Shown here: positions 1-49,763 of the stretch, piece by piece
Numbering within the stretch: the stretch's first letter is position 1
Layout: each line of letters starts with the position of its first letter
Program-made: the position numbers and the translations under genes
The notes under the pieces: model-generated
The model's database searches: none
Told to the model about the DNA's origin: nothing
The model's input: only the letters and a program-made list of their open reading frames with translations
From: Rhodoferax sp.
GTDB lineage: Bacteria > Pseudomonadota > Gammaproteobacteria > Burkholderiales > Burkholderiaceae_C
Assembly (NCBI GenBank): GCA_018063505.1
Contig: JAGPBF010000001.1
Coordinates: forward strand, 7,724-71,723
Direction of reading: 5' to 3'
DNA length: 64,000 bases

Positions 1-152
1 CCCTCCCGGTCGAAACTGCGGAACTCCGATGCCAGATCCACCGTATGGCCGGCCAGGTGCAAGGCGTCCATCAACAGACGCGCCACGCGGCGGTCGCCGG
101 ACGGGGTTGGATGGTTGGGCGCCTTCAAAGGCGCATAAAACGCAATGCGCAT
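1..152 (-). CDS. GT4-family glycosyltransferase, N-terminal part (runs off window start)
   Basis: Not in the ORF track. Manual translation from ATG at 152 gives MRIAFYAPLKAPNHPTPSGDRRVARLLMDALHLAGHTVDLASEFRSFDRE, an N-terminus I recognise from GT4 proteins. Same strand as the two upstream GTs. Confidence 0.8.
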   Translation of the reverse strand, partial: MRIAFYAPLKAPNHPTPSGDRRVARLLMDALHLAGHTVDLASEFRSFDRE

Positions 153-299
153 GGTTCATTGTAGAAGTGGGCCAGCGCCGGTTTGCGCGGGTCCGGACCC
201 GTACAATCCGCCGCTCCGGGCCGAGGCAGGCCCTTGCCTGCGATCCCTTCCAATCCCAGCCAGCAGGGCCGACGGCCCTGCACAACCGGCCTGAACCTG

Positions 300-2201
300 A
301 TGTGCGGACTCTTTCTCATCGTTGAACGCAGCAGTCCGGTGGCGCTGGAGCGTGCCCGCAAGGCGACAGAGGCGTTGCGGCACCGCGGACCCGATGGCAT
401 CGGTCAGTCGGAGTTCAGCTGGACCTTGCCCGGCAGCTCAGGCCCGGTGACGGTATCGGGCTACCTCGGCCATACCCGGCTGGCGATTCTCGATCCGCGC
501 GCGCGGTCGGACCAGCCATTGCGCCGCGGCCGCCACACACTGGTCTACAACGGCGAGGTGTACAACTTCCGGGCACTGCGCGCAGAGCTCGCCCGCAAGG
601 GCGCGGATTTCGACACTGACGGCGACACCGAGGTATTGCTGAGCCTGCTGGCCCACGACGGCATTGCGGGCCTGAACCGTGCCAACGGCATGTGGGGCCT
701 GTGCCTGCTCGACCAGTCCAGCGGCACGATCACGGCGACGCGCGACCGATATGGCAAGAAGCCGCTGTTCTGGTTCCAGGATTCCGAGCGGCTGTGCCTG
801 TCCTCCGAGATCGGCCCGATCCTGTCCTATCTGCAGCAAAGCCCCAGCTTCGTATCGACCGACCTGGACAACTACCTGCAAGGCGGATGGTGTTACCCGC
901 ACGCCGATGGCAGCACCCACCTGCAGCATATCCGCCAGGTGGTTGCCGGCAGCGCGCTGGTGTTCGACCTTGCCCACTGGAGCCGCAGCGTCCAGACCTG
1001 GTTTGACCTGCCCAGTCATGTCGCGCACGGAGACAGGGAGCCCGCGCAACTGGGCGCGCTGGTCCAGGACGCTGTCAGTGCCCGGCTGGTTGCCGACCGG
1101 CCGGTCGGCCTGTTGTTGTCCGGTGGCGTGGACAGCTCCTTGATCCTCTCGGTGCTGGCCCACCAGGGCCTGACCGAACAGGTCACCTGCTTCACCGGGG
1201 ATGCCGGCAAGAGCGATGACGCGCGGTACGCCAAAGCCTGCATCGCGCAGTTGGGCATTCGCGCCGTCAATCTGCCGCTGGACTACGGCAGCGCCGGCAT
1301 GGACAGCTTTCTGCAGGTGTGCCGGCACCAGGAAAAGCCGTTTCCATTCATCGGCAATGCGCTGGCAATGCCGCAGTTGTACGCGCATATCGCCGCGCAC
1401 AATGTTCCGGTGGTGCTGGACGGCACCGGTGGCGACGAGATCTTCGCCGGTTACTGGGACCGGTATTTCCGCTTTGCCGCAGCACAGGCCATGGCCCGCG
1501 ACGATACGATTTGGCGCGATCAGGTATTGCAGGCCAACGCAGACGATCCGCGCACGCTGGCCATCGTCGAGCAGGCATTTGACTGGTGCACGCGCGCCGG
1601 GTCGACGAACACCACGGCGCCGGCGCTGCGCCGCGAATCCGACGATCCACCCGACATGGACCAATTCGTGCACCCGGGCGTGCTTGCAGCAAAGGGTTGC
1701 GACCCGCTGCGCGATTTCCGTGGCGACCTGACGCAGGCGCTGGTTCTCGATGCTGGCGCCGGCAGGTTGCATGAGTGGTTGTGGCAGAACGACCGCAACG
1801 CGATGATGTCGGGCATCGAAAACCGCAGCCCGCTGCTCGACTACCGGCTGGCGCCATACATGGCCAGTGGTTACGCGAACAAGTTCGTCGGCCCGTGGAA
1901 CAAGCATGAACTGCGTTCGGTATTTCCGCTGGGTTTGCCGACGCAGTGGCGCCGCGACAAGCAGGGATTTCGCTGGCTTTACCACCGCTTTCTGCGCCAC
2001 AACCGCGACCAGGTTTTGCAACTGGTGGCGGCATCAAGAATCCTGCCCGAACGCGTCGACGTCGGGCGGTTTCTGGATGCCGCACGCCGTGACGACCACT
2101 ACCTCGGTAGCAGCCTGCTGCACCGCATGTTGTGTATTGCCGGGCTGGAGCAGACCTGCGGCTTCAAGGGCATCGCCAGTCCGTCGCACGCGCCGGACTG
2201 A
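300..2201 (+). CDS. asnB: Asparagine synthetase B-like glutamine amidotransferase (polysaccharide/glycan amidation type)
   Basis: True start MCG at 300 gives the Ntn Cys1. Motifs GHTRLAILD, NGEVYNF, RDRYGKKPL, LLSGGVDSS, DGTGGDEIFAGY and ENRSPLLD are present. Confidence 0.9.
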   Translation: MCGLFLIVERSSPVALERARKATEALRHRGPDGIGQSEFSWTLPGSSGPVTVSGYLGHTRLAILDPRARSDQPLRRGRHTLVYNGEVYNFRALRAELARKGADFDTDGDTEVLLSLLAHDGIAGLNRANGMWGLCLLDQSSGTITATRDRYGKKPLFWFQDSERLCLSSEIGPILSYLQQSPSFVSTDLDNYLQGGWCYPHADGSTHLQHIRQVVAGSALVFDLAHWSRSVQTWFDLPSHVAHGDREPAQLGALVQDAVSARLVADRPVGLLLSGGVDSSLILSVLAHQGLTEQVTCFTGDAGKSDDARYAKACIAQLGIRAVNLPLDYGSAGMDSFLQVCRHQEKPFPFIGNALAMPQLYAHIAAHNVPVVLDGTGGDEIFAGYWDRYFRFAAAQAMARDDTIWRDQVLQANADDPRTLAIVEQAFDWCTRAGSTNTTAPALRRESDDPPDMDQFVHPGVLAAKGCDPLRDFRGDLTQALVLDAGAGRLHEWLWQNDRNAMMSGIENRSPLLDYRLAPYMASGYANKFVGPWNKHELRSVFPLGLPTQWRRDKQGFRWLYHRFLRHNRDQVLQLVAASRILPERVDVGRFLDAARRDDHYLGSSLLHRMLCIAGLEQTCGFKGIASPSHAPD

Positions 2202-2230
2202 GCACAGACCGCCGCTGCCGTCACCAGCCG

Positions 2231-3502
2231 TCAGGCAGCCTGGTCGTCGGGTGTCGGACGCAGGCCGAATTTGCGCGCCAGCCGCGCGATGTTGGACGAC
2301 AGGCCGAACGCGGCGTTCACCCGCATGCGCCCGGCCGTTCCCAGCGCCAGGCGCCGCTGCGGATCACGGATCAGCGACTCCAGCGCCAGGGCCAGCGCCT
2401 GCGCGTCCTGCGGCGGCACCAGCAGGCCGCTCTGTCCGTCGACAATGAGCTCGTGGATCGCGGAAACGTCGGTTGCGACACAGGCGACGCCCTGGCTCTG
2501 GGCTTCCATCAACACGTTTGGAAGCCCGTCGCGGTCACCGTCGCCGGCGATCCGGCTAGCCAGTGCAAACAGATCCGCATTGCGATACAACGCAATGACC
2601 TGTTGCTGGGCCAGCGCGCCTCGCCATTGGATGCGCTCGCTCAGCCCGAGCGAGCGGGCCTGGGCTTGCAGTGTCTTGCGCAGCGGCCCGCCGCCGACAT
2701 GGTCCAGCCGCCAATGCAGGTCGGGCGGCAACAGGGCCAGCGCCTGCAGCAGGATGTCGGTACCCTTTTTCTCGACCAGTCGGCCGACCGACATCAGCAC
2801 CACCGGATCGTCGAGCGCAGTGCCGTCACGCGCGGCGCGTTCTCCGGGGTCGGGCGCAAACCGCTGCAGGTCCAGCCCGTGGTAGACCAACTCGACGCGA
2901 CCGGCAGGCGCCAGCGTTGCAAGGTAGTCGCGGTTGGTGGCCGTGCAGGTCACCTGCCAGTCGCACGACGCCAGCTTCTCGCGCAACTCCCATTGCGGCG
3001 AGGTCCAGATGTCCTTGGCGTGGGCCGAGCCAGACCACGGCAGGCCGCGCACCATCGCCGCATACCGCGTCACCGAGGCCGGCGTGTGCAGGAAATGCGC
3101 ATGCAGGCGCACCACATCGGCCGGCAGCTCGGCCGCCAGCACCAGCGCCTGGCCGAAGCGCCGGCCGCGATTGGCGCTGCGGTCTCGCCACCAGTCACGC
3201 AACCACTGGCCACGTGCGGCGCCATAACCTGGCAGACGGCGCACACGCCACCAGGCACGCAGCACCCGCAACGGGTCGTTGTAAAGGTATTCCGGCAGGT
3301 ATACGACCGGCGCCTTGATCTCGGCATGGATGGGGTGGACCTGGCTGTCGGTCGGATGGCGCAACGACACGATCAGGATCGGCAGGCCAAGACGCTCAAG
3401 CGCTGCGATCTCCTGCGCGATGAAGGTCTCGGACAGGCGGGGATAACCCTTGAGGACAAAGGCCACACGGCCCACGCCCGATACCACTGGCCGTTCAGCC
3501 AA
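2231..3502 (-). CDS. GT4-family glycosyltransferase
   Basis: Motifs KGYPRLSETFIAQEI, SVGRLVEKKG and DRDGLPNVLMEA. TTG start overlaps the upstream stop. Confidence 0.9.
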   Translation of the reverse strand: MAERPVVSGVGRVAFVLKGYPRLSETFIAQEIAALERLGLPILIVSLRHPTDSQVHPIHAEIKAPVVYLPEYLYNDPLRVLRAWWRVRRLPGYGAARGQWLRDWWRDRSANRGRRFGQALVLAAELPADVVRLHAHFLHTPASVTRYAAMVRGLPWSGSAHAKDIWTSPQWELREKLASCDWQVTCTATNRDYLATLAPAGRVELVYHGLDLQRFAPDPGERAARDGTALDDPVVLMSVGRLVEKKGTDILLQALALLPPDLHWRLDHVGGGPLRKTLQAQARSLGLSERIQWRGALAQQQVIALYRNADLFALASRIAGDGDRDGLPNVLMEAQSQGVACVATDVSAIHELIVDGQSGLLVPPQDAQALALALESLIRDPQRRLALGTAGRMRVNAAFGLSSNIARLARKFGLRPTPDDQAA

Positions 3503-4718
3503 TACGCGTCACCACGTTGTCGACCTCGTCCTCGGGGCGCTGTATCCAGGGCGCGACCAGCTTGGCCACGTTGGGCAGGCCTTCGAGCAGGCCCGGCACG
3601 ACAACACTGGACGGCAATGCCTGGCGCGGCAATGCGCGCAGGGCTTCGGCCATGACCTCGGGATCACGCGCACCGTCCTCGAGCAACATGCTCACCAACC
3701 CCAGGCTGGCAGCACTCGAGGCGCGGATGAACTGTTCCAGCCGCGGCTTGGTGCGTGGAATGATCAGCGCGCGCTTGTCGAGCGACAACACCTCGCAGAA
3801 GGTGTTGTAGCCGCCCATGGCTACCACGCCGCTGGCACCGGCAACCAGCGCCTCGAGATTGCTGTGGAAGGTGATCGCATCGACGCGCTTGAGTTTGGCG
3901 GCGCGGTTCATGAACTCGGTCTGCCTCTCCGGCTGCATGAAAGGGCCCAGCACCATCAATGCCGGGTACGGCAACAGTGGGTCGTGTTCGTATGCGCGCA
4001 GCACCCAGTCGATCAGTTCCTCGCCATCGCCACCGCCACCGGTCGTGACCAGGATGTAAGGCTTCTTGGTGATGTCGGGCATACGCGGCGGTGCGCCGGC
4101 CGTCGACACCTCGCGGGCAAGATAACCGGTATAGGTGATCTTCTTGCGTACGCTGGCCGGCAAGGTGATGCCCGCCAGCGGCTCGCAGATCTGGGGCAGG
4201 CCATAGATCCAGATTTCGTCGTAAAGGTCGCGCAAGGCCGGCAACACCTTCTTGCGTTGCCATTCAGGAACCAGCAGCTTGGGTTCGTCCATGACATCGC
4301 GCAAGCCCATGACCAGCCGGGTGCCGCGCTGCTTGAGCATCTTCAGGGTCTCGAGAACCTCGCCGCGCAGGCCCAGCGGCTCCTTGTCGACGATGAAGAT
4401 GTCCGGATCGAACATCTCGGCCGTGTGCTTGATGATCGAGGCGCGCATCTCCAGCATCTGGTCGACGTCGATATGCAGGTTCAGCGGCGTGTATTCGCCA
4501 TTGCGCAGCTTGACCACGCCGGGCACCCGGACGAAATCGACCCGCGAGCGAAAATCGAAACTCCCGATGATGGGCGAACCCGACAAGATCAGCACCGACA
4601 GGTGTTTGAACCGATCGACCAGCGCATGTGCAATGGTGCGACAGCGTCGCAGATGCCCCAGGCCAAAGGTATCGTGGCTGTAGATCAGGATCCGGGTATC
4701 TTTGCGGTCTCGCTCCAT
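3495..4718 (-). CDS. GT-B fold glycosyltransferase (GT28 C-terminal-like)
   Basis: Motifs RILIYSHDTFGLGHLRR, VTTGGGGDG and MGGYNTFCE..PR..EQ. GGAG lies 6 nt before ATG 4718. Confidence 0.85.
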   Translation of the reverse strand: MERDRKDTRILIYSHDTFGLGHLRRCRTIAHALVDRFKHLSVLILSGSPIIGSFDFRSRVDFVRVPGVVKLRNGEYTPLNLHIDVDQMLEMRASIIKHTAEMFDPDIFIVDKEPLGLRGEVLETLKMLKQRGTRLVMGLRDVMDEPKLLVPEWQRKKVLPALRDLYDEIWIYGLPQICEPLAGITLPASVRKKITYTGYLAREVSTAGAPPRMPDITKKPYILVTTGGGGDGEELIDWVLRAYEHDPLLPYPALMVLGPFMQPERQTEFMNRAAKLKRVDAITFHSNLEALVAGASGVVAMGGYNTFCEVLSLDKRALIIPRTKPRLEQFIRASSAASLGLVSMLLEDGARDPEVMAEALRALPRQALPSSVVVPGLLEGLPNVAKLVAPWIQRPEDEVDNVVTRIG

Positions 4719-4963
4719 CATGCTCTCCAATCGAATCGTCTCGCCAGGCTGAATGGTTGTTGTCGTGCCCGCGGATGGAGCGAAGCGGGATTATAAGACT
4801 GCACTTTTTGCACCGGACTGGGCCAGTGGGCGTGCAGCCGGGTGCCCGGCGGGGCCATCAGGCGTTAGCATTGCACGATGCCCGCCTACAGCCCTTGCCC
4901 CTGCCACTGCAACCCGCTGCGGCAGGTGCTGTCGGACGCGTTGCGTTGACTGGATCGTCCCCT

Positions 4964-6679
4964 GTGCCATTGGCCATCGCGTCCCGTCTGCGTGAGTGGA
5001 GCAACCCGGCCGGCATTCGCCGGATCCGCCTGTACTCGGGCTTGATCCTTTTCACCTTTGTCAGCAGCCATCTTCTGAACCATGCACTGGGACTGATTTC
5101 GCTGCAATCCATGGAGGCGGGTCGATGGCTGTTCATCGCCATCTGGCGCAATCCGGTCGGCAGCGCTCTTTTGCTCGGCGCAGTATTGGTGCATCTGGCG
5201 CTCGCCTTCTGGGCAATCTATCTGCGCCGCCATTTGCGCATGCCGCTGTGGCAGGCGGTGCAGCTGGGCCTGGGCCTGTTCATTCCATTGGTACTGGTAC
5301 ACCACGCGATATTCACCCGCGCCGCTGCGATGGCGCACGACTACCAGGACTCCTACACGATGCTGGTGTTGCTGTTCTGGCAATTGCGGCCCGATCTGGG
5401 CCTGTGGCAAAGCGTGCTGCTGCTGGCGGCATGGACCCACGGTTGCATCGGCATCCACTACGCACTGCGCATGCGCCCCGGTTACCACCGTTGGGCGATG
5501 GTGCTGTACACGCTGGCGATCCTGGTTCCGGTGCTGGCATTGCTGGGTTTTGCACAGGCCGGCAGATATGTATCGACACTGGCCAACGACCCCAGCTGGT
5601 TGCGCCAGACGATTGCCGATGCCCAGGTACCGGATGCGCTTGCATTGGCGGCGCTCTATGAGACCCGCGACGCGATACTGGTTGCGTTGGCAATCCTGCT
5701 GGGCATGACGCTGCTGGCACGCGGCCTGCGGTATTGGCACGAGGCCGGGCGCTCGGTACGGATTCGTTACCCGAACCAGCAAGTGGTCACGGTGCCCAAG
5801 GGGTTCACGGTGCTCGAAGCCAGCCGCCAGGCCGGCATCGCCCATGCGTCGGTGTGTGGTGGGCGCGGCCGATGCTCCACCTGCCGGGTCCGTGTCGACG
5901 CGCCGGACGGTGGCCTGCCCGAGCCCCGTGCAGCTGAAGCGCGGGTGTTGGCGCGGGTGGGCGCGCCAGCCAATGTCCGGCTGGCTTGCCAGTTGCGCCC
6001 GCAACTCGACATCCGCGTCACGCCGCTGATTCCGCCCAGTATCCCGCCGGCGCTGGCATTGACGCAAGGACAGGTGATTGCCGGCGAGGAACGCGACGTC
6101 TGCATCCTGTTCGCCGACCTGCGTGGCTTTACCAGCCTGTCCGAACGCCGGCTGCCGTACGACGTGGTGTTTCTGCTCAATCGCTATTTCGACGCAGTCG
6201 GGCAAGCCATCGAAACAGCCGGTGGCGTGGCCAACCAGTTCACGGGTGATGGCGTGATGGCGCTGTTCGGCCTGCAAGGCGGGCTCAAGGCAGGCGCCCG
6301 TGCTGCCTTGCAGGCCGCGGCGGGCATGCACAAGGCGATCGAAGAGCTGAGCGCCGACCTGCACGAGGAGCTCGCAGAGCCGCTGCGGCTGGGCATCGGC
6401 ATCCACTGCGGGTCAACCGTCGTCGGCCACATGGGCCGCGGCGTGGCAACCTACCTGACCGCTGTCGGGGACGTCGTGAACACCGCCAGCCGGCTGCAGG
6501 ACATGACCAAGAAATTCCAGTGCCAGCTGATCGTATCGGCGCCAGTCGCGGAGCATGCGGCACTGGACGCTGCAGGGCTGCAGCGCGAGCAGATCACGGT
6601 GCGCAACCGCGAACAGCCGATCACGATCATCATCGTTCCGACGGTTCAGGACATTCGCCTGCTGTCGATTCCGGCTTGA
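4964..6679 (+). CDS. Membrane-bound class III nucleotidyl cyclase with His-rich TM domain and 2Fe-2S ferredoxin domain (CyaC-like)
   Basis: About six TM helices with His (SHLLNH, VHL, VHH, THGCIGIH), ferredoxin CGGRGRCSTC...RLAC, and cyclase motifs FADLRGFT, FTGDG and GDVVNTASRL. Start uncertain; GTG 4964 chosen. Confidence 0.85.
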   Translation: MPLAIASRLREWSNPAGIRRIRLYSGLILFTFVSSHLLNHALGLISLQSMEAGRWLFIAIWRNPVGSALLLGAVLVHLALAFWAIYLRRHLRMPLWQAVQLGLGLFIPLVLVHHAIFTRAAAMAHDYQDSYTMLVLLFWQLRPDLGLWQSVLLLAAWTHGCIGIHYALRMRPGYHRWAMVLYTLAILVPVLALLGFAQAGRYVSTLANDPSWLRQTIADAQVPDALALAALYETRDAILVALAILLGMTLLARGLRYWHEAGRSVRIRYPNQQVVTVPKGFTVLEASRQAGIAHASVCGGRGRCSTCRVRVDAPDGGLPEPRAAEARVLARVGAPANVRLACQLRPQLDIRVTPLIPPSIPPALALTQGQVIAGEERDVCILFADLRGFTSLSERRLPYDVVFLLNRYFDAVGQAIETAGGVANQFTGDGVMALFGLQGGLKAGARAALQAAAGMHKAIEELSADLHEELAEPLRLGIGIHCGSTVVGHMGRGVATYLTAVGDVVNTASRLQDMTKKFQCQLIVSAPVAEHAALDAAGLQREQITVRNREQPITIIIVPTVQDIRLLSIPA

Positions 6680-6728
6680 TGCCGATCGACCCGACGCCGA
6701 CGCCAAGCGTCACCACACTGCGCCAGAT

Positions 6729-7676
6729 CTACTGCTCCAATCGGGCCAGTTGCGCCCGCAATGCCGGCAAGGCGGCCAGCATTGCCACCCGCCCGGCCTC
6801 GATGGACCGTCTGCGGGCGGTGAAGTCGGCACTGCCGATATCCTTGAGTACCGGCCGCACAACGACATCGGCACCGTGCAGCTCCAGTGCGTTGATGCTC
6901 TTGCTCATGATCGAGAACGTCTGCATCAACACTTGCAGCATCCCGTCAACGCCACCGGTCTGCGGTGCGCTGGAAATGTCGACAGCGATAACCAGATCGG
7001 CCCCCATGTCACGGGCAAAACGCACCGGCACCGGTGCGACGAGGCCACCATCCACATATTCGCGTCCACCGATACGCACCGGCTGGAAAAGCGCCGGAAT
7101 GGCGCTGGATGCGCGCACCGCCAGACCGGTATCGCCGCGCCGGAACAGCATGCTGTCGCCGTTGCCCAGATCGGTGGCGACGATGCCCAAGGCCATCGGC
7201 ATCGCCTCGATCGGTTTGCGGTTGACCTGGCTATTGACATAGCGGGCGATGGCGTCGCCGCGCAACACACCGCGACGAAACAGCGGCAGAGTCCAGTCGG
7301 TCAGGCTGGCCTCCTCCATGTCTTCGGCGATCTGCTGAAGCTGCGCGCCGCTACGCCCACTGGCATAGATCGCGGCCACCAGGCTGCCGGCGGAGGTTCC
7401 CACAACCAGCGAAGGCCGGATGCCGGCCTCCTCCAGCACCTGGATCACGCCGACATGGGCAAAGCCCCGAGCGGCGCCTCCACCCAGTGCCAGCCCGATG
7501 CGAGGTGCTGGTTTGGGCGGTGGAACCACAACAACAGGGGGCGGAGCTGGTGGGTCCTGCCGTGGCGGTGATGCGCAGCTGGCCACCAGCAGGGCCAGGC
7601 CAATCATCCACAGGCCGCGACTGCGTACGGTGCGGACACGGCGAACCGGCGGGCAAACTGAAGGTGCTTCAGCCAT
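6729..7676 (-). CDS. Patatin-like phospholipase, predicted lipoprotein
   Basis: GGGAARG, GTSAG and DGG catalytic motifs, plus lipobox VASC. Confidence 0.9.
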   Translation of the reverse strand: MAEAPSVCPPVRRVRTVRSRGLWMIGLALLVASCASPPRQDPPAPPPVVVVPPPKPAPRIGLALGGGAARGFAHVGVIQVLEEAGIRPSLVVGTSAGSLVAAIYASGRSGAQLQQIAEDMEEASLTDWTLPLFRRGVLRGDAIARYVNSQVNRKPIEAMPMALGIVATDLGNGDSMLFRRGDTGLAVRASSAIPALFQPVRIGGREYVDGGLVAPVPVRFARDMGADLVIAVDISSAPQTGGVDGMLQVLMQTFSIMSKSINALELHGADVVVRPVLKDIGSADFTARRRSIEAGRVAMLAALPALRAQLARLEQ

Positions 7677-7743
7677 GGCAAACCGGGTCAGCCAGAACTG
7701 ACATTGACAACAACATCACATCCAACAAGGGAGTGTTATTAGG

Positions 7744-7757
7744 AATGATTCGCGTTT
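7744..7757 (+). promoter_or_regulatory. Fur-box-like site
   Basis: AATGATTCGCGTTT (2 mismatches to AATGATTCTCATTT) in the AT-rich region upstream of the Fe3+-binding protein gene. Confidence 0.5.
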
Positions 7758-7817
7758 GCTTTATGATACTGACTGAAGCCTGTCTTTTCCTGTTCACTGT
7801 TTCAACCCATTTTCACA

Positions 7818-8861
7818 ATGTTTATCAAACCCCTCATCGCTGCCAGCACCGTGTTGCTAGGCTTGTCCATCAGCCACGCCCAGACCTCGGAACTCAATAT
7901 TTATTCGGCCCGGCACTATCCGACCGATGAAGCGCTGTACACCGACTTCACCAAGTCCACCGGCATCAAGATCAACCGGGTCGATTCCGACGATGCCGGT
8001 ATTCTCGCCCGCCTCAAGGCCGAGGGCACGGCATCTGCGGCCGATGTCATCCTGCTGGTCGATGCAGCCCGGCTGTGGCGTGGCGAGTCCGACGGCCTGT
8101 TCCAGGGCATTCGCTCGACCACGCTGGAAAACGCGATTCCGGCGAACCTTCACAGCCAGCCAGACGAGAAAGGCAACATTGCCTGGTTCGGATTCTCGAC
8201 CCGCGCCCGCGTCATCGTCTATGACAAGGTTCGCGTGAAGCCACAGGACGTCGACAGCTACGAAAAACTGGCAGATCCGCAGAACAAGGGAAAGATCTGC
8301 ATCCGCTCCGGCTCACACCCGTACAACCTGTCGCTGTTCGGCGCCGTCACCGAACACATGGGTGAGCAGAAGGCCGAACAATGGCTGCGTGGCATCGTTG
8401 CCAACCTCGCCCGTTCACCCAAGGGCGGCGATACCGACCAGATCAAGGGTGTGGCGTCAGGCGAATGTGCCATTGCAGTGTCCAACTCCTACTATCTGGC
8501 CCGCATCATGCGTTCGGATGCGCCCGAGAACAAGGCCATCATGGACCGGGTCGGCGTCGTGTTTCCTAACCAGTCGAGCTGGGGCACCCACGTCAACATC
8601 GCCGGTGGAGCGGTTGCACGCAATGCCAAGAACCCGGCCAATGCCGTCAAGTTCCTGGAATACCTTGCCAGCCCCGCGGCCCAGAATCACTTTGCCAATG
8701 GCAACAATGAGTGGCCTGCAGCCAAGGGCATTGCGATCAACAACCCGGCCCTCAAGTCGATGACCGGTGGCGCATTCAAAAGTGACGACACGCCGATCAG
8801 CAAGATCGGCATGAACCAGGTCAAGGTCCAGCAAATGCTTGACCGGGTCGGCTTCAAATAA
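7818..8861 (+). CDS. Fe(III) ABC transporter periplasmic binding protein (FutA/FbpA type)
   Basis: Signal peptide, then ELNIYSARHY, GLFQ, GFSTRARVI, SNSYY and HVNIAG. Confidence 0.9.
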   Translation: MFIKPLIAASTVLLGLSISHAQTSELNIYSARHYPTDEALYTDFTKSTGIKINRVDSDDAGILARLKAEGTASAADVILLVDAARLWRGESDGLFQGIRSTTLENAIPANLHSQPDEKGNIAWFGFSTRARVIVYDKVRVKPQDVDSYEKLADPQNKGKICIRSGSHPYNLSLFGAVTEHMGEQKAEQWLRGIVANLARSPKGGDTDQIKGVASGECAIAVSNSYYLARIMRSDAPENKAIMDRVGVVFPNQSSWGTHVNIAGGAVARNAKNPANAVKFLEYLASPAAQNHFANGNNEWPAAKGIAINNPALKSMTGGAFKSDDTPISKIGMNQVKVQQMLDRVGFK

Positions 8862-18036: not shown

Positions 18037-18461
18037 ATTTTCGCGCAGGCTCCCGTGATGAACCGGAAATCAACCTGATCCCGTTCATCGACATCCTGCT
18101 GGTGGTGCTGATTTTCCTGATGCTGACGACCACGTACAGCAAGTTCACCGAGATCCAGCTCCGGCTCCCGGTGGCCGACACCGAAACCCAGCGCGACTAT
18201 CCCAAGGAACTGCTGGTCAGCGTCAGCAGTGACGGTGCTTATTCGGTGAACGCGGTCCCGCTGGTCGGCCAAAGCCCGGATATCCTGGCCAATGCCATGC
18301 TGGCGGCAGCCAAATCCGGCAAGGACTCCGTCGTCGTCATCCAAGCCGACGCCAGCGCCAAACACCAGGCGGTCATCACCGTCATGGAGGCCGCCCGGCG
18401 CGCCGGACTGGCCCAGATCACCTTCGCAACCCAGCCTTCGGGCAAAGCCGCAACGCGTTAG
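18033..18461 (+). CDS. exbD: ExbD/TolR protein
   Basis: EINLIPFIDILLVVLIFLM. ATGA overlap with exbB. Confidence 0.92.
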   Translation: MNFRAGSRDEPEINLIPFIDILLVVLIFLMLTTTYSKFTEIQLRLPVADTETQRDYPKELLVSVSSDGAYSVNAVPLVGQSPDILANAMLAAAKSGKDSVVVIQADASAKHQAVITVMEAARRAGLAQITFATQPSGKAATR

Positions 18462-18465
18462 CGCC

Positions 18466-19515
18466 ATGGCCGGCGCAGCGCTGCGGCAGACCCTGCTCGG
18501 TGCCTGGCGGCAACGCGGCCCGCTGGCCTGGTTGTTGTGGCCGCTGTCCCTGTTGTACGGCGGTATGTGGCACGTGCGGCGCTGGCTTTACCGCTGCGGC
18601 CTGCTCCCGATGCAACACCTGCCGGTGCCGGTGATCGTGGTTGGCAATGTCGTGGCCGGCGGCGGCGGCAAGACCCCGCTGGTCATCGCGTTGGTGCAGT
18701 ATCTGCAGTCCATGGGCCTGCGTCCGGGCGTGATTGCCCGCGGATACGGCCGCAGCAATCAGGATTGCATGGCAGTAACTCTTCAGGCCACAGCCGACGA
18801 TGTCGGTGACGAGCCACTGCTGGTACACCGGCGCACCGGTGCGCCGGTGCAGGTTGCAACGCAACGCGCAGCCGCCGCGCGCGCATTGCTGCAGCGCTAT
18901 CCTGAACTCGATCTGCTCATCTGTGACGATGGTCTGCAGCATCTGGGCCTGCACCGTGACATAGAGATCTGCGTATTCGACGACAACGGTGTCGGTAACG
19001 GATTCCTGTTGCCGGCGGGGCCGCTGCGCGAGCCCTGGCCACGTGCCTGTGACCTGCTGGTTCGCAGTGGTGCACTGCCCGGCGGCGCAGCACACCAGAT
19101 TCACCGGCAATTGGCTGCGCATGGACTGCGCGCCGACGGCCAGACGGTTGCGCTGGACAGCATCATGGCAGCAATTCCGCGGGCCTCGATCAAGGCTGTC
19201 GCAGGGATTGCACACCCGGACATATTCTTCGCCATGTTGCGCCAGCGCGGAATGAAGCTCGATGCCACGCGCGCCATGCCCGACCATGCACCATTGGACA
19301 AGTTGCCAGTTGCCTTCGATGGCACAGAGATCCTGCTTTGCACCGAGAAGGATGCGGTCAAGCTGTGGTCGCTGCGTCCGGATGCGCTGGCCGTGCCACT
19401 GGTGGTGTCACTCGATCCGGCCTTCTGGAAGGCGTTGACACAGTTGTTGCGACAACACGGGCCTGCGCACTGGGCCACAAAGTTATCATCGCCCCATGGA
19501 CACACGCCTACTTGA
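18466..19515 (+). CDS. lpxK: Tetraacyldisaccharide 4'-kinase
   Basis: [30 protein letters not shown] and TEKDAVK. Confidence 0.95.
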
Positions 19516-19678
19516 ACTGCTGGTTTGCCCCGTCACCAAGGGGCCACTGGAATATGACCGTGAGCGCCAGGAAATGCTGTCCCGCAGCGCGCGGCTGGCT
19601 TACCCGGTCCGCGACGGCATCCCGGTTCTGCTGGAAAACGAGGCGCGCACGCTGACCGACGATGAACTGGGCTTGTGA
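19496..19678 (+). CDS. Trm112/YcaR-like protein
   Basis: [11 protein letters not shown]...[11 protein letters not shown], in the canonical lpxK-kdsB position. Confidence 0.93.
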
Positions 19679-19740
19679 GCCGCCTGGTGGTTCCCAAGAC
19701 GCATCGCACCGCAATGCGCAACTCGGAGGGTAGCGCGGTG
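19675..19740 (+). repeat. Junction repeat element, copy C
   Basis: GTGAGCCGCCTGG..TTCCCAAG..TCGCACCGCAATGCGCA..GGAGG-N8-GTG. Begins on the trm112 stop codon. Confidence 0.7.
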
Positions 19741-19847
19741 CGTCACCTGTCCGTGCCACAGGCCTCTCGTGCTGCACAGTTATGCCGCCACACGATTGAC
19801 GCCCGTTGCGGAGCCATTCGCAGGATGGCGCTGCCGGTCGCCATGCG

Positions 19848-20639
19848 ATGACATTCACCGTCCTGATCCCTGCCCGGCTGGCCTCTACACGCCTGCCCAA
19901 CAAGCCGTTGGCCGCCATTGCCGGCGTACCCATGGTGGTGCGCGTGGCACAACGCGTCACCCCTGCGCCCGGATCGGGTGCGATACGCGTGGTGGTGGCC
20001 GCCGACGACCACGCGATCATCGACGCCTGTGCCGCCTACGGAATCGAGTCGGTATTGACCCGTACCGACCATGCCTCGGGCAGCGACCGCCTGGCCGAGG
20101 CTTGCGACCTGCTGGGCCTCGATGACAGCCATGTGGTCGTCAACGTGCAGGGTGATGAGCCGATGATCGATCCCCTGCTGGTGCATGCCGTGGCCAATCT
20201 GCTGCACGAGCGGGCAGACACCCGCATGAGCACGGCAGCACATCCGATTGCGACGCTGGAGGAATTTCGCAATCCGAATATCGTCAAGGTGGTCATGGAC
20301 CAGCAGCGCAACGCGCTGTATTTCAGCCGCGCGCCGATTCCATTGGCGCGCGACCATCCCGACGATGCCTGGTGGTCACTGGCCCCGACAGCGGCCAACG
20401 AACTGCTGCGCCAGGCCGCGCCGATGCGCCATATCGGCATCTACGGCTACCGGGCCGGCTTTCTGCGCCTGTTCCCGCAACTGGCGCCTGCGCCGCTGGA
20501 GCGCGCCGAAGCGCTCGAGCAATTGCGCGCGCTCTGGCATGGCCATCGGATCGCTGTACATGTGACCGACAGCGATCCGGGCGCGGGCGTAGACACCCCA
20601 CAGGACCTGGAGCGCGTCAGGCTGCTTTTTCGCAAATAA
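19848..20639 (+). CDS. kdsB: 3-deoxy-manno-octulosonate cytidylyltransferase
   Basis: [34 protein letters not shown] and LEQLRAL. Confidence 0.96.
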
Positions 20640-20690
20640 CCAGCCAAGCGCCCATGCTATTCTTGCGCCAGCAAATTTGTGGCAAGGTGA

Positions 20691-22404
<1,714 letters not shown>

Positions 22405-29313: not shown

Positions 29314-29394
29314 GCCGCCGGGCCACCTCTGGCGCGCACTTCGCGTCGCACGCGTGACAATCGGGTGTACTGCCAGTCACCCACAGGACAGACC

Positions 29395-30114
29395 ATGGAC
29401 GAGCCTATCCTTACCATTGAAGAACGCGCAGCGATCAATTCCGGTCGCTGGTTCAGTTCCCTGTCGCCCTCCCTGCGACATGACATCCTGCGATGCACCT
29501 ACGTCAAACGTTTCCGCAACGGCGATCTGATCTGCGCCCGTGGCGACCCGCCCGAGGAATGGATTGCCTGTGCCAAGGGCGCGGTACGCGTGAGTTCGAC
29601 CTCGATTTCGGGCAAGCAGATCACGCTGACCTATGTGGAGCCCGGGATCTGGTTCGGCGATGTGGCCATCTTCGACGGCGACCGGCGCACCCACGATGCC
29701 TATGCGCATGGCGAGTGCAGCGTGTTGTGTGTCGCCAGGGCCGATCTGATGAAGATCCTGTCGCAGCACGTCGAGTTGTACGAGGCCATGTTGCGGCTGC
29801 ACGCGCGGCGGATCAGGCAGCTGTATGGCCTGGTGGAAGACCTCAACACCCTGCCCTTGCGCGCCCGCCTGGCCAAGCAGCTGTTGCACCTGGTGCGCAG
29901 CTACGGAGTGGCCAACCTGGCCAACGCGAACGAGATGCGCATCAGCCTGCATCTGGCACAGGAGGAACTGGCGCAATTGCTCGGTGCCTCGCGCCAGCGT
30001 GTGAACCAGGAGCTCAAGACGATGGAGCGCGAGCAATGCATACGCATCGAAACCAGCGGCCTGATCGTGCGCGACAGCGCGGCACTGATGCGAATCGCCG
30101 AGGCCGACCAATGA
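29395..30114 (+). CDS. Crp/Fnr-family transcriptional regulator
   Basis: cNMP domain (FGD...RTH) and HTH QEELAQLLGASRQRVNQEL. Confidence 0.92.
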   Translation: MDEPILTIEERAAINSGRWFSSLSPSLRHDILRCTYVKRFRNGDLICARGDPPEEWIACAKGAVRVSSTSISGKQITLTYVEPGIWFGDVAIFDGDRRTHDAYAHGECSVLCVARADLMKILSQHVELYEAMLRLHARRIRQLYGLVEDLNTLPLRARLAKQLLHLVRSYGVANLANANEMRISLHLAQEELAQLLGASRQRVNQELKTMEREQCIRIETSGLIVRDSAALMRIAEADQ

Positions 30115-46639: not shown

Positions 46640-47524
46640 GTGAACAGTCCCGCCAGCACTTACCGTCCACCCGCCGAGCACTATGAAAATTTCCCGGTGG
46701 CCTCCTGGTTCTGCCCGCCCGCATTGCGCGCCCCGATCGCCGCCATCTACTGGTTTGCCCGGACCGCGGACGATATTGCCGACGAAGGCCAGGCCACGGC
46801 CGAAAGCCGCCTGGCGGCGCTGGCGCACATGCGCGAAGACCTGCACCGCGCCAGTCGCAGCCAGCACACCAGCGAACGCTGGCCACAGATTTTTGCCAAC
46901 CTGGGCCCGATGATCCGGCACTACAACCTGCCACTGGCCTTGCTGGCCAATCTGCTCGATGCCTTCGAGCAAGACGTGCGGTATACCGCAGCGGCACAAC
47001 GCTACCAGACCGACGCCGAATTGCTCGCGTATTGCCGCCTGTCGGCCAATCCGGTGGGCCGGCTATTGCTTCACCTGTACGGCATCCAGGACGCCGCGTC
47101 GCTGCGCCGCAGCGACCAGATCTGCACCGCGTTGCAACTGATCAATTTCTGGCAGGACCTGGGACGCGACATCGAACGCGGCCGCTGGTATCCCAGCGTG
47201 GCGCAAATGGCGCGGCATGGCGTGACCGATGCCGCCCTGCAATGCGACCAGCCGCATGCCGCAGCCAGTCGCATGGTGCAGGACTACGCCGCGCAGGCGC
47301 GAGCCCTGATGCTGCAAGGTGCGCCGCTGGCGTATCAGCTGGCAGGCCGCGCCGGATGGGAGTTGCGCCTGGTGGTTCAAGGTGGTCTGCGCATCCTGGA
47401 CAAGCTCGCCGCCATCGACCATGCCAGCTGGCGCCAACGGCCGCGGCTGGGCAAACGCGATGTGCCCCTATTGCTTTGGCGCGCCTTCGGCCCGGGCCAG
47501 GCGCGCATGGCGGAGCCGACCTGA
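46640..47524 (+). CDS. hpnC: Squalene synthase HpnC
   Basis: HYENFPVAS, ADDIADEG, SANPVGR and LQLINFWQD. GTG 46640 is the likely start. Confidence 0.93.
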   Translation: MNSPASTYRPPAEHYENFPVASWFCPPALRAPIAAIYWFARTADDIADEGQATAESRLAALAHMREDLHRASRSQHTSERWPQIFANLGPMIRHYNLPLALLANLLDAFEQDVRYTAAAQRYQTDAELLAYCRLSANPVGRLLLHLYGIQDAASLRRSDQICTALQLINFWQDLGRDIERGRWYPSVAQMARHGVTDAALQCDQPHAAASRMVQDYAAQARALMLQGAPLAYQLAGRAGWELRLVVQGGLRILDKLAAIDHASWRQRPRLGKRDVPLLLWRAFGPGQARMAEPT

Positions 47525-47582
47525 TGCGCCCTGCAAGCATGCCCTGCTCCCCATCGACGCGTTCCGAACCGAGGCTGCAGCC

Positions 47583-48434
47583 ATGACGCCGCAGGATTAC
47601 GTCCAGCAGAAGGCTGCCGCATCAGGTAGCAGTTTCTACTACGCCTTTCTGTTCCTGCCCAAACCCCGCCGCGCCGCCATCACCGCGTTTTATGCGTTCT
47701 GCCGAGAAGTCGACGACGTCGTTGACGACATGGTCGATCCGGGCGTGGCGGCGACCAAGCTGGCCTGGTGGCGCTCGGAGGTGGCGCAATCGTTCGCCGG
47801 CCAGCCCAGCCATCCGGTAACCCAGGCCCTGATGCCACTGGCACCCCGGTTCGGCATCGAGGCACGCCACCTGCTGGCCGTTGTCGATGGCTGCCAGATG
47901 GATTTGCAGCAGACCCGCTACCTGGATTTCCCGGCGCTGCAGCAGTACTGCCATCTGGTGGCCGGAGTTGTCGGCGAAGTTGCCGCGTCGATCTTCGGTC
48001 AGAGTGCCCCAGGCACGACGGCATACGCCCACAAGTTGGGCCTGGCACTGCAGCTGACCAACATCATCCGCGATGTCGGTGAAGACGCGATGCGTGGCCG
48101 GATCTACCTGCCGGTCGACGAACTGCAGCAATTTGACGTAAAGGCACACGAAATCCTCAAGCGCCCCTCGGACACCGAGTTCCGCGCGCGCTTCGTCCGG
48201 CTGATGCAGTTCCAGGCCCGGCGTGCCCATCGGTTCTATGAGGAGGCTTTTGCGCTGCTGCCCGACGCCGACCGCCGTGCGCAAAAACCCGGCCTGATGA
48301 TGGCCAGCATCTACCGCACGCTCTTGCGCGAGATCGAGCGCGATGACTTTGCCGTGTTGCACCAGCGGGTCAGCCTCACGCCGCTGCGCAAGTTCTGGCT
48401 GGCCTGGCGGGTACAGGCGCTCGGACGTGTCTGA
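47583..48434 (+). CDS. hpnD: Presqualene diphosphate synthase HpnD
   Basis: SGSSFYYAF, VDDVVD and LQLTNIIRDVGED. Confidence 0.93.
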   Translation: MTPQDYVQQKAAASGSSFYYAFLFLPKPRRAAITAFYAFCREVDDVVDDMVDPGVAATKLAWWRSEVAQSFAGQPSHPVTQALMPLAPRFGIEARHLLAVVDGCQMDLQQTRYLDFPALQQYCHLVAGVVGEVAASIFGQSAPGTTAYAHKLGLALQLTNIIRDVGEDAMRGRIYLPVDELQQFDVKAHEILKRPSDTEFRARFVRLMQFQARRAHRFYEEAFALLPDADRRAQKPGLMMASIYRTLLREIERDDFAVLHQRVSLTPLRKFWLAWRVQALGRV

Positions 48435-48473
48435 GGCCCTGACCCGGTGCGGCGCAGGCGCGCTGCGCGCACC

Positions 48474-49763
48474 ATGAAGATGGCGATTGTCGGTGGTGGC
48501 TGGGCCGGCATGGCGGCGGCCGTCTCCGCCGTGCAGGCCGGCCATCAGGTGACACTGTGGGAGGCCTCACGCACCCTGGGCGGCCGGGCTCGCGCCTTGG
48601 CGGCGACCTTGCCCGACGGTAGCACCGTGGTTCTGGACAACGGCCAGCATATCCTGATCGGCGCCTACCGCGAATGCCTGCGCCTGATGGCGCTGGTCGG
48701 TGTCGACCCGGCGCAGGCACTGCTGCGCCAGCCGCTGAACATGCGTTTCTCCGACGGTGGCGGCATCCGCTTCCCGCGCTGGCCGGCACCCTTCGATGCA
48801 CTGGCGGGCATCGTGACAGCGCGTGGCTGGCATTACCGTGACAAGCTGGCCCTGGTGCTGCAGGTCTTGCGCTGGCGACTGGAGAGCTTTCAATGCGAGG
48901 CCAGGCAGTCGGTCGCCGACGTCTGCCGCGACCTGACCCCACGGGTATTGACCGAGCTGATCGAGCCACTGTGTGTGTCAGCCCTGAACAGCGCGGCCGC
49001 CGAGTCCAGTGGGCAGGTATTCCTGCGCGTGATGCAGGACGCGATGTTCGGCGGCAGCGGCAGCTCGCACCTGCTGTTGCCCACGACCGACCTCTCGGCC
49101 CTGTTCCCGGCCCGCGCAGCGTTATGGCTGGCGCAGCATGGGGCCACCGTGCACGTCGGTGTCCGGGTCGGACGACTGGAGCGCGAAGACGCGCACTGGA
49201 AGGTCGAAGGCGAAACCTGCGACCGGGTGCTGCTGGCCACGGCGGCGCCGGAGGCACAGCAGCTGCTGCACTCCTGCCTGCCCCGCTGGCCGCTACCGAT
49301 ACAGGCATCGGCACGGCTATGGCTGGCTGCGGCGAGTGCTCTGCAGCACATGCCGATCGCCACGGTCTATGCCTGGGGCGTTGGCGCTGCACTCGCCCAA
49401 CCGATGCTGGCGTTGCGACCCGGCCAAACAGCCGGCCAGGTCTGGCCGGCACAGTTCGTATTCGACCGCGGGCAGCTTGGCGGACCGGCCGGATTGCTGG
49501 CTTTCGTCATCAGTGCCAGCCGGGGTTCGCGCGAACAATTGCAGGCGCAGGTGCTGCAGCAGGCAAAGGCGCAACTCGGGTTGGACCTGCAGGCGGTGCA
49601 GACTGTCGTCGAGAAACGCGCCACCATCGCATGCACACCCGCCCTGGTGCGCCCGCCGATGGATATCGCCGTTGGCCTGCGGGCCTGCGCCGACTATGTG
49701 GACGGGCCCTACCCGTCCACGCTGGAGGGCGCGGTACGCAGCGCGACGGCGGCTATTCGATGA
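48474..49763 (+). CDS. hpnE: Hydroxysqualene dehydroxylase HpnE
   Basis: GGGWAGMAAA FAD site, DNGQHILIGAY and YPSTLEGAVRS. Follows hpnCD. Confidence 0.92.
   Translation: MKMAIVGGGWAGMAAAVSAVQAGHQVTLWEASRTLGGRARALAATLPDGSTVVLDNGQHILIGAYRECLRLMALVGVDPAQALLRQPLNMRFSDGGGIRFPRWPAPFDALAGIVTARGWHYRDKLALVLQVLRWRLESFQCEARQSVADVCRDLTPRVLTELIEPLCVSALNSAAAESSGQVFLRVMQDAMFGGSGSSHLLLPTTDLSALFPARAALWLAQHGATVHVGVRVGRLEREDAHWKVEGETCDRVLLATAAPEAQQLLHSCLPRWPLPIQASARLWLAAASALQHMPIATVYAWGVGAALAQPMLALRPGQTAGQVWPAQFVFDRGQLGGPAGLLAFVISASRGSREQLQAQVLQQAKAQLGLDLQAVQTVVEKRATIACTPALVRPPMDIAVGLRACADYVDGPYPSTLEGAVRSATAAIR

Follow-up and report, generated by a model that had tools for sequence, protein, structure and literature searches.

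The left-hand end (positions 1-6679) of a 64-kb stretch of Rhodoferax sp. contig JAGPBF010000001.1, here called the window, holds the end of a conserved glycosyltransferase (GT) operon and, divergent from it, the gene of a membrane-anchored nucleotidyl cyclase. Where this operon is found in other proteobacteria, it is recurrently accompanied by genes that make or bind cyclic nucleotides. The best explanation for the whole, with a probability of about 0.5, is an operon for a glycan whose output is gated by a cyclic nucleotide. Control by cyclic nucleotides is supported family-wide by the gene neighbourhood; for the organism of the window it is plausible and unproven. Export is a more likely target for it than transcription. 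What can be read directly here is the gene content, the conservation, the statistics of the neighbourhood, the gene fusions and the catalytic motifs. An earlier note on the window had proposed a cyclic-nucleotide-controlled pathway making an amidated glycan; the cyclic-nucleotide link stands at the level of the operon and its associated genes (the module), whereas neither transcriptional control nor amidation found support.

The operon begins with GT28a (3495..4718, minus strand), encoding a GT1/GT28-like, inverting-type GT-B enzyme of 407 amino acids (aa) with weak matches to Glyco_tran_28_C and MJ1255. The next gene, GT4a (2231..3502, minus strand), encodes a GT4-family retaining GT-B glycosyltransferase of 423 aa; an 8-bp overlap joins the start of this gene to the stop of GT28a. 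The 5' end of a third gene, GT4b, lies at 1..152 (minus strand), where the translation gives the first 50 codons of a 393-aa GT4 enzyme. An AsnB-family glutamine-dependent amidotransferase of 633 aa (300..2201) is encoded on the plus strand and splits the set into two transcription units, and the cyclase (571 aa) follows at 4964..6679 on the plus strand. All five genes had been named in the earlier note, and the open reading frame (ORF) listing and the family scans agree with it. The note also pointed to the sequence left of the window, and the locus does continue there. The GT4a protein is encoded, as an exact match, on two public contigs of the same organism (24.7 kb and 10.4 kb), and contig L001 reaches 9 kb past the left edge of the window. 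Its gene order is a complete GT4b (393 aa), a His phosphatase (207 aa), a further glycosyltransferase, GT28b (395 aa), a CE4-like deacetylase (251 aa) and a Dpp/Gsi-like ABC importer with a fused double ATPase and a SBP_bac_5 binding protein. The whole glycan-assembly locus is about 9 kb, and positions 1-6679 of the window are its right-hand end together with the neighbouring signalling gene. What had been taken for a locus of three glycosyltransferases is indeed a conserved set, but the unit, as seen on L001 and in the other operon loci, has four glycosyltransferases, a deacetylase and often a phosphatase.

We define the core operon as GT28a-GT4a-GT4b-(His phosphatase)-GT28b-CE4-type deacetylase. 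When each species was represented by a single genome, a scan gave at least 598 loci, and the best 80 were kept for mapping (L numbers). The core order is present in about 60 of these 80, from Burkholderiales, many Rhodospirillales and their relatives, and one gammaproteobacterial metagenome-assembled genome. The operon is widespread across alpha-, beta- and some gammaproteobacteria, and it is old. A Dpp/Opp-type ABC importer comes after it in 53 of the best 80 loci. The most conserved member is GT28a, which has 62-73% identity to its alphaproteobacterial orthologues, that is, between classes, and in which the motifs YSHDxFGLGH and MGGYNTFCE are invariant among the aligned orthologues. Its relatives amount to more than 8000 close database matches and, at E < 1e-30, 1053 clusters of 50% identity. 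GT4a orthologues with 52-79% identity were found in about 70 loci, and the GT4b-phosphatase gene pair is kept in 46, the phosphatase not being universal in the module. On Rhizobiaceae replicons (Shinella, S. fredii NGR234, and pSymB of S. meliloti at 837 kb) the same proteins are clustered in another order, with GT4b paired with the deacetylase. That the set is common in alphaproteobacteria and has no assigned product, as the earlier note stated, is borne out by the mapping, and no curated family in NCBIfam or Pfam gives the glycosyltransferases of the operon a product. In 44 loci the operon is followed by a small protein of about 170-190 aa with one or two hydrophobic segments and no family match (for instance L007:15511-16086, just past the deacetylase gene); it is missing from the lineage of the window.

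The neighbourhood of the operon has a link to cyclic nucleotides that is stronger for a receptor and an exporter than for the cyclase. In loci with at least 5 kb of upstream sequence, a hidden Markov model scan found a cyclase gene or a cyclic-nucleotide-binding gene in the flanks of 55 out of 67 (82%). When all flanking ORFs were clustered and the frequent families annotated, about 58 alphaproteobacterial loci could be evaluated, and in 45-52 of them an MsbA/HepA-like ABC exporter of about 890 aa is encoded divergently from GT28a. The next gene encodes a bare cyclic-nucleotide-binding (CNB) domain of 154 aa, and often a Methyltransf_17 gene comes after it. The neighbouring cyclase given for alphaproteobacteria in the earlier note is there replaced by this pair of exporter and CNB protein as the usual partner. 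In five genomes (L041, L049, L066, L072 and L077) the exporter and the CNB domain are fused in one reading frame, with the phosphate-binding cassette GE...PRTA intact. These fusions, and the fact that the set is kept through the rearrangements in Rhizobiaceae, argue for a functional coupling.

Cyclases are also found beside the module, in at least four different architectures including the ferredoxin (Fer2) type of the window. In L001-L003 the gene divergent from GT28a encodes a cyclase of the same architecture, and L007, L009 and L010, which are Burkholderiales, have one there with 42% identity. The other types are a six-helix protein of 440 aa (L005:2768-4093 and L006:776-2095), a 405-aa protein in a gammaproteobacterial locus (L068:8610-9827) and a soluble 449-aa protein in S. 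meliloti (L086:5323-6672) and S. fredii. In the clusters on S. meliloti pSymB and in S. fredii the cyclase gene lies inside the cluster. Taken with the 55 loci and the five fusions, this bears out that the module is recurrently linked to cyclic-nucleotide genes.

The exporters carry an insertion of about 250 residues inside the nucleotide-binding domain, between the Walker A half and the half with the signature and Walker B motifs (for example L031:7162-9843, minus strand, and its orthologues), and the insertion has no family match. The exporter gene appears to be frameshifted in S. meliloti 1021 (L087:21676-24376, pSymB) and in S. meliloti ml45 (L086:18544-21230), where it gives two high-scoring segment pairs in different frames and is not listed as a coding sequence. 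The copy in S. fredii NGR234 is intact.

The exporter-CNB fusions suggest that control is exerted at the exporter rather than at the promoter. The search for binding sites upstream of the operon agrees with this: boxes for CRP (TGTGA-N6-TCACA), FNR and Clr had only 0-3 matches in 78 upstream regions. Transcriptional control of the glycosyltransferase operon was rejected as unsupported with these boxes nearly absent. The intergenic region between GT28a and the cyclase (4719..4963) is 233-245 bp with the called starts, in line with the approximately 245 bp given before. It would shrink to about 100 bp if the cyclase starts at an in-frame upstream GTG (4826), which is the start used in gene call P0271 (617 aa). 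Two elements are conserved in an alignment of three lineages (the window, L003 and L089): a minus-strand TATAAT at 4790-4795 and a block at about 4862-4882. The region has no Rfam match, and the Rfam, sigma-70 and terminator scans of window positions 1-8000 gave nothing above chance and no full sigma-70 consensus. In the 147-bp spacer between the divergent GT4b and AsnB genes (153..299), no consensus promoter was found.

The enzymes of the operon are recognizable as to fold and general chemistry. GT4a and GT4b have the Glycos_transf_1 domain above the gathering score (118.7 and 79.4 bits). The EpsE-like and WcaL-like matches of GT4a in NCBIfam are far under the cut-offs, and the best NCBIfam matches of GT4b are weak, MshA at 72 bits (cut-off 462) and BshA at 70 bits (cut-off 274). 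The AlphaFold2 model of GT28a, with a mean predicted local distance difference test (pLDDT) score of 92.6, has the GT-B fold, and the top folds in the PDB are GT1 enzymes; a PDB sequence search with GT28a gave nothing useful. GT28b is 24% identical to GT28a over its full length. GT28a has no MurG match, and GT28b reaches 29 bits against a MurG cut-off of 250; the two are GT1/GT28-like enzymes and not MurG. The labels lipopolysaccharide (LPS) core, colanic acid, PEP-CTERM, MshA/BshA and MurG were all rejected, with every NCBIfam and Pfam score far under the cut-off. For the 251-aa protein, the motifs RDDD, HGxxH, PWNR and HH are kept in 28 orthologues, with RDDD, HGxxH and HH invariant. The L001 protein itself has no family matches, and a PDB sequence search was without a match. 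Five of the 28 orthologues have weak matches to PF01522 (Polysacc_deac_1; best E 0.0037), four match DUF2334, and the rhizobial orthologues are labelled polysaccharide deacetylase by the Prokaryotic Genome Annotation Pipeline. We treat the protein as a putative, divergent de-N-acetylase of the CE4 type. A membrane segment is predicted in none of the six enzymes.

We propose that the four soluble GT-B enzymes build a short oligosaccharide, a glycoside or a glycolipid head group in the cytoplasm. The primer may be phosphorylated, in which case the His phosphatase would remove the phosphate afterwards, and the CE4-like enzyme would then remove an N-acetyl group. Most likely, a cyclic nucleotide would gate the export of the glycan, and hence its output, at the protein level. 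In the lineage of the window, the inserted AsnB may amidate a carboxyl group of the product, and the cyclase could plausibly convert a redox signal from the membrane or from electron transfer into a cyclic nucleotide. An even more far-reaching possibility is that the operon, the exporter with its cyclic-nucleotide receptor and the Dpp-type importer together form a system that secretes and recaptures a partly de-N-acetylated oligosaccharide. The cyclic nucleotide would gate the ABC exporter directly, and in the window the input would be the redox state of the membrane, sensed through a haem/2Fe-2S cyclase. The product could then be a signal, a metal carrier or a precursor of the matrix. We put this forward as speculation, and think it improbable in this complete form.

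The window cyclase has five hydrophobic helices, a membrane anchor at about residues 20-255, a Fer2 domain (PF00111, 39.8 bits) between the anchor and the catalytic domain, and a class IIIb catalytic domain at about 6062-6637 (PF00211, Guanylate_cyc, 64.9 bits against a cut-off of 21.9). The 2Fe-2S ligands Cys298, Cys304, Cys307 and Cys342 are invariant among four homologues of the same architecture and kept in at least 90% of 34 homologues. The same four-sequence alignment shows the metal-binding Asp385 and Asp429 together with the transition-state residues Asn506 and Arg510 as invariant, and both metal Asp and the Arg are nearly invariant (at least 90%) among the 34. In the anchor, His36, His40, His77, His114 and His159 are invariant or nearly so in 35 sequences, and 36/40, 77, 114 and 159 fall on separate predicted helices. 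The family is large, with more than 7700 matches. A bioinformatic description exists of class IIIb cyclases that combine a ferredoxin domain with a predicted dihaem anchor of six transmembrane helices (6TM) (Beltz et al. 2016, eLife, PMC4821796), and that paper reports a BLAST-level similarity of the anchor to cytochrome b of the FrdC/SdhC type. We did not recover this likeness to dihaem cytochrome b, neither with a sequence profile against the PDB nor with Foldseek and a model of pLDDT 91.6, where there was no hit at E <= 0.001. Haem binding and redox sensing by the window cyclase therefore stay at the level of inference. Of the haem, the 2Fe-2S cluster and the class III domain that the earlier note had ascribed to this protein, the last two are seen in the four Cys of the Fer2 domain and in the Guanylate_cyc match.

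The proteins of cluster 1 of Beltz et al., for instance Q132R4 of R. palustris, share with the window cyclase the order of an anchor with intramembrane His, a 2Fe-2S ferredoxin and a class III domain, the Thr at the second specificity position and an occurrence in alpha- and betaproteobacterial taxa. The FrdC/SdhC likeness reported for them is the one that we did not recover. They differ in that the whole window subfamily has Gln for Lys. This residue, Gln425 in the motif NQFTGDG, is at the position where Lys or Glu specifies the substrate and is nearly invariant across the subfamily; at the second specificity position there is Thr or Ser, which agrees with class IIIb. With Gln instead of the substrate-selecting Lys, the nucleotide that is made cannot be called from sequence. 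None of the cyclases beside the module, in any of the four architectures, has the canonical substrate-selecting Lys; Gln takes its place in the window type and in L068, and Asp or Ser in the other module-adjacent cyclases. Since the adenine-selecting Lys is missing, all these cyclases may make a nucleotide other than cyclic AMP (cAMP).

The adjacency of the cyclase and the glycosyltransferases is recurrent, and it is far from obligatory. The expectation in the earlier note that the two occur together holds, for a cyclase of the same type, in some Burkholderiales only, and a number of observations weigh against a cyclic-nucleotide-gated glycan output, at least for the window. In the close relatives L004, L015 and L096 the operon is kept and the adjoining cyclase is missing. 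Among seven cyclase homologues sampled on long contigs, one reproduces the locus of the window and five are in unrelated contexts (P0351, P0304, P0306, P0378 and P0390). One of these, P0351, is 65% identical and adjoins clpA-clpS as in the window, with no glycosyltransferase genes, which means that the adjacency is possibly an inherited position and not a functional one. An alternative partner is present in L007 and L009, where a cyclic-nucleotide-gated K+ channel is next to the Fer2-cyclase. Homologues of the exporter and of the small CNB protein were not found in the 64-kb window or on L001, and no CRP/FNR/Clr-type palindrome lies upstream of GT28a in the window. A 62% identical homologue of AsnB is found in another Comamonadaceae genome among unrelated genes, with no glycosyltransferase cluster, and no uronic-acid-forming nucleotide-sugar dehydrogenase gene accompanies the core operon. 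We found no published description of the module in the literature on COG4671, on cyclic-nucleotide-binding ABC exporters, on pSymB clusters and on the Clr/CgrA regulons. The product, its export, the identity of the nucleotide, redox sensing and any regulatory link in the window organism are all things that we infer.

Several of these points would be explained if the cyclase is only a positional neighbour in the clpS-clpA region of Comamonadaceae, and signals elsewhere, while the glycosyltransferase locus is independent of it. Partners for such a cyclase are at hand. K+ channels with a TVGYGD filter and a C-terminal CNB domain lie upstream of the operon at L007:5509-6693, L009:4044-5300 and L014:7051-8367, and in the window a 249-aa regulator of the Crp/Fnr family (cNMP_binding and HTH_Crp_2) is encoded at 29365-30114 on the plus strand, some 23 kb away from the cyclase, whose product it might bind as a receptor. 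A merely positional relationship is difficult to combine with at least four unrelated cyclase architectures taking the module-adjacent position in different lineages, or with the module being tied to cyclic-nucleotide genes in 82% of the loci. Furthermore, P0345, a Fer2-cyclase 62% identical to that of the window, lies with a 905-aa ABC exporter, a 149-aa cyclic-nucleotide-binding protein, a Methyltransf_17 gene and two cyclases of 437-438 aa, and this ties the Fer2-cyclase family to the exporter, CNB and methyltransferase set. We regard the positional explanation as less likely than a gated glycan output.

The operon could also be thought to make a small soluble glycoside, such as a compatible solute, a cofactor or a thiol-like compound. 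The mycothiol and bacillithiol pathways use the same classes of enzyme, with a GT4 acting on a phosphorylated acceptor, then a phosphatase, an N-deacetylase and an ATP-dependent amide-forming enzyme, and the Dpp-type importer would serve uptake or recapture. The GT4b-phosphatase pair, the GT4b-deacetylase pair of Rhizobiaceae, the cytoplasmic location of all the enzymes, the small-molecule GT1 enzymes as nearest folds of GT28a and the ability of AsnB-type enzymes to form amide bonds would fit, and MshA and BshA are the best matches of GT4b. These scores are far under the cut-offs, though, the deacetylase is CE4-like and not of the LmbE type, and neither the phosphatase nor AsnB is universal in the module. 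The four glycosyltransferases, three more than in those pathways, exceed what such a product would need. A polymer or oligomer that is exported is suggested by what related clusters have in addition: an MsbA-like exporter, a polysaccharide lyase, nucleotide-sugar dehydrogenases and an alginate-export porin. A small glycoside is unlikely. Less likely still is an ordinary LPS-core, O-antigen or capsule/exopolysaccharide (EPS) cluster of known type. The GT4 enzymes do weakly resemble EpsE, WcaL, PEP-CTERM-associated and LPS transferases, and EPS and O-antigen loci commonly contain genes of the AsnB type (an example is the table in PMC3684757). But no curated cut-off was reached for any LPS-core, O-antigen or named EPS equivalog, so that the assignment to a known LPS-core pathway, considered in the earlier note, was not borne out. 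No priming transferase, flippase, polymerase, ABC-2 transporter, Wza or membrane GT2 synthase was seen in the window or on L001, and neither were Wzx, Wzy, Wzm or Wzt. When the ORFs of the 64-kb window were screened for predicted transmembrane segments, no Wzx/Wzy/Wzm-like polytopic protein came up; the only ORFs with at least nine segments are an AcrB-type pump and a Liv-type permease. On this point the earlier note was right. In addition, an identity of 62-73% between classes for GT28a is far above what is usual for serotype-variable loci, and the S. meliloti copy at 837 kb on pSymB is distinct from both the msbA2 operon (938 kb) and the nodP2-smb21248 cluster.

AsnB itself looks active, as judged from its motifs: the N-terminus is MCGLF, with Cys2 as the nucleophile, and the PP-loop motif is LLLSGGVDSS. 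The protein scores 108.7 bits with GATase_7 and 147.1 bits with Asn_synthase, and it just passes the broad model TIGR01536 (272.8 bits, cut-off 267.1). It is under the equivalog cut-offs of NF006949 (164.5 against 499) and of TIGR03108, the XrtA/PEP-CTERM amidotransferase (187.6 against 816.9). Among the best 80 operon loci it occurs only in the clade of the window (L001-L004 and L015), and other queries found it in L089 and L096 as well. Wherever the gene occurs, it lies between GT4a and GT4b and is read in the opposite direction. As a lineage-specific insertion, AsnB cuts the ancestral operon in two, and its tie to the glycan pathway is positional only. Its restriction to one clade and the 62% identical homologue outside any glycosyltransferase cluster, together with the lack of a uronic-acid-forming gene with the core, make the amidated product of the earlier note weakly based. 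We presume a likeness to WbpS of P. aeruginosa O6. Like WbpS and the sugar amidotransferases of the TIGR03108 type, the window AsnB is a two-domain, glutamine- and ATP-dependent enzyme encoded among glycosyltransferase genes. It differs from the TIGR03108 family in its low score, in having no uronic-acid-forming gene nearby and in the homologue outside glycan loci.

The secretion of bacterial glycans is known to be gated by cyclic di-GMP (c-di-GMP), and cAMP acts mainly via transcription factors of the CRP type. The c-di-GMP-gated systems, BcsA-PilZ, Alg44, PgaCD and BgsA, are alike in concept to what we propose, with a second-messenger receptor on the secretion machinery and a post-translational control of the glycan. 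In the module, by contrast, a CAP/PKA-type cyclic-nucleotide-binding domain, attached to an ABC exporter or encoded next to it, would be the receptor, and class III cyclases would generate the messenger. The c-di-GMP systems use membrane GT2 synthases, whereas the putative synthases here are soluble GT-B proteins. Another comparison is with the msbA2 operon of S. meliloti (SMb21188-21191) and with NdvA/ChvA, which also combine glycosyltransferases with an MsbA-like single-polypeptide exporter and an undefined or periplasmic glycan, with no Wzx/Wzy. The msbA2 operon is at 938 kb and not at 837 kb on pSymB, has other glycosyltransferase families and is without a cyclic-nucleotide-binding partner, a deacetylase or a Dpp-type importer, and its type of exporter differs from that of the module, which has the insertion of about 250 aa in the ATPase domain. 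Both the msbA2 operon and the Clr-regulated nodP2-smb21248 cluster were considered as already described versions of the module and rejected, being different loci. The type of the cyclase has been described before; as far as found, the literature holds no description of the glycosyltransferase operon or of the pairing of exporter and receptor.

If the proposal is true, second messengers would be wired to the cell surface in a different way, through a cyclic-nucleotide-binding domain that is part of an ABC exporter or encoded next to it. Many orphan class III cyclases of rhizobia would for the first time be placed in a physiological context, as would the large family of ferredoxin-linked membrane cyclases, of which, to our knowledge, no 6TM member has been studied biochemically. 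The recurrent cyclic-nucleotide neighbours suggest an unstudied control of glycan production or export. Among the carriers of the module are tractable organisms (S. fredii NGR234, S. meliloti, Rhizobium leguminosarum and Azospirillum), in which the product and the regulatory link are testable.

Among the other genes of the window, a patatin-like phospholipase with a lipoprotein-type signal (LVASC) is encoded at 6729-7676 on the minus strand, convergent with the cyclase; in L004 and L015, where the cyclase is missing, it directly abuts GT28a. The earlier note had stated that no sugar-nucleotide genes are present in the window, and this has to be corrected, as kdsB is found at 19806-20639, about 13 kb from the right end of the region described here. 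It is part of the usual lpxK-kdsB-adk arrangement (18292-21404, plus strand) of lpxK, kdsB for the CMP-3-deoxy-D-manno-oct-2-ulosonic acid (CMP-Kdo) synthetase and an adenylate-kinase-like ORF, and kdsB and lpxK are housekeeping LPS machinery. A gene of the squalene/phytoene synthase family (Pfam) and an FAD-oxidase-like ORF follow each other at 47319-49763 on the plus strand, which suggests genes for hopanoid or carotenoid precursors.

A distant version of the module (34% identity) was found in L088 on the plasmid pCFSAN004179G of an enterotoxigenic E. coli (159889-170067). It comprises a GT28-like gene, two GT4 genes, an ABC exporter, two kinase-like genes, an alginate-export porin and a nucleotide-sugar dehydrogenase, and the cluster is located about 3 kb from the heat-stable enterotoxin gene sta1.

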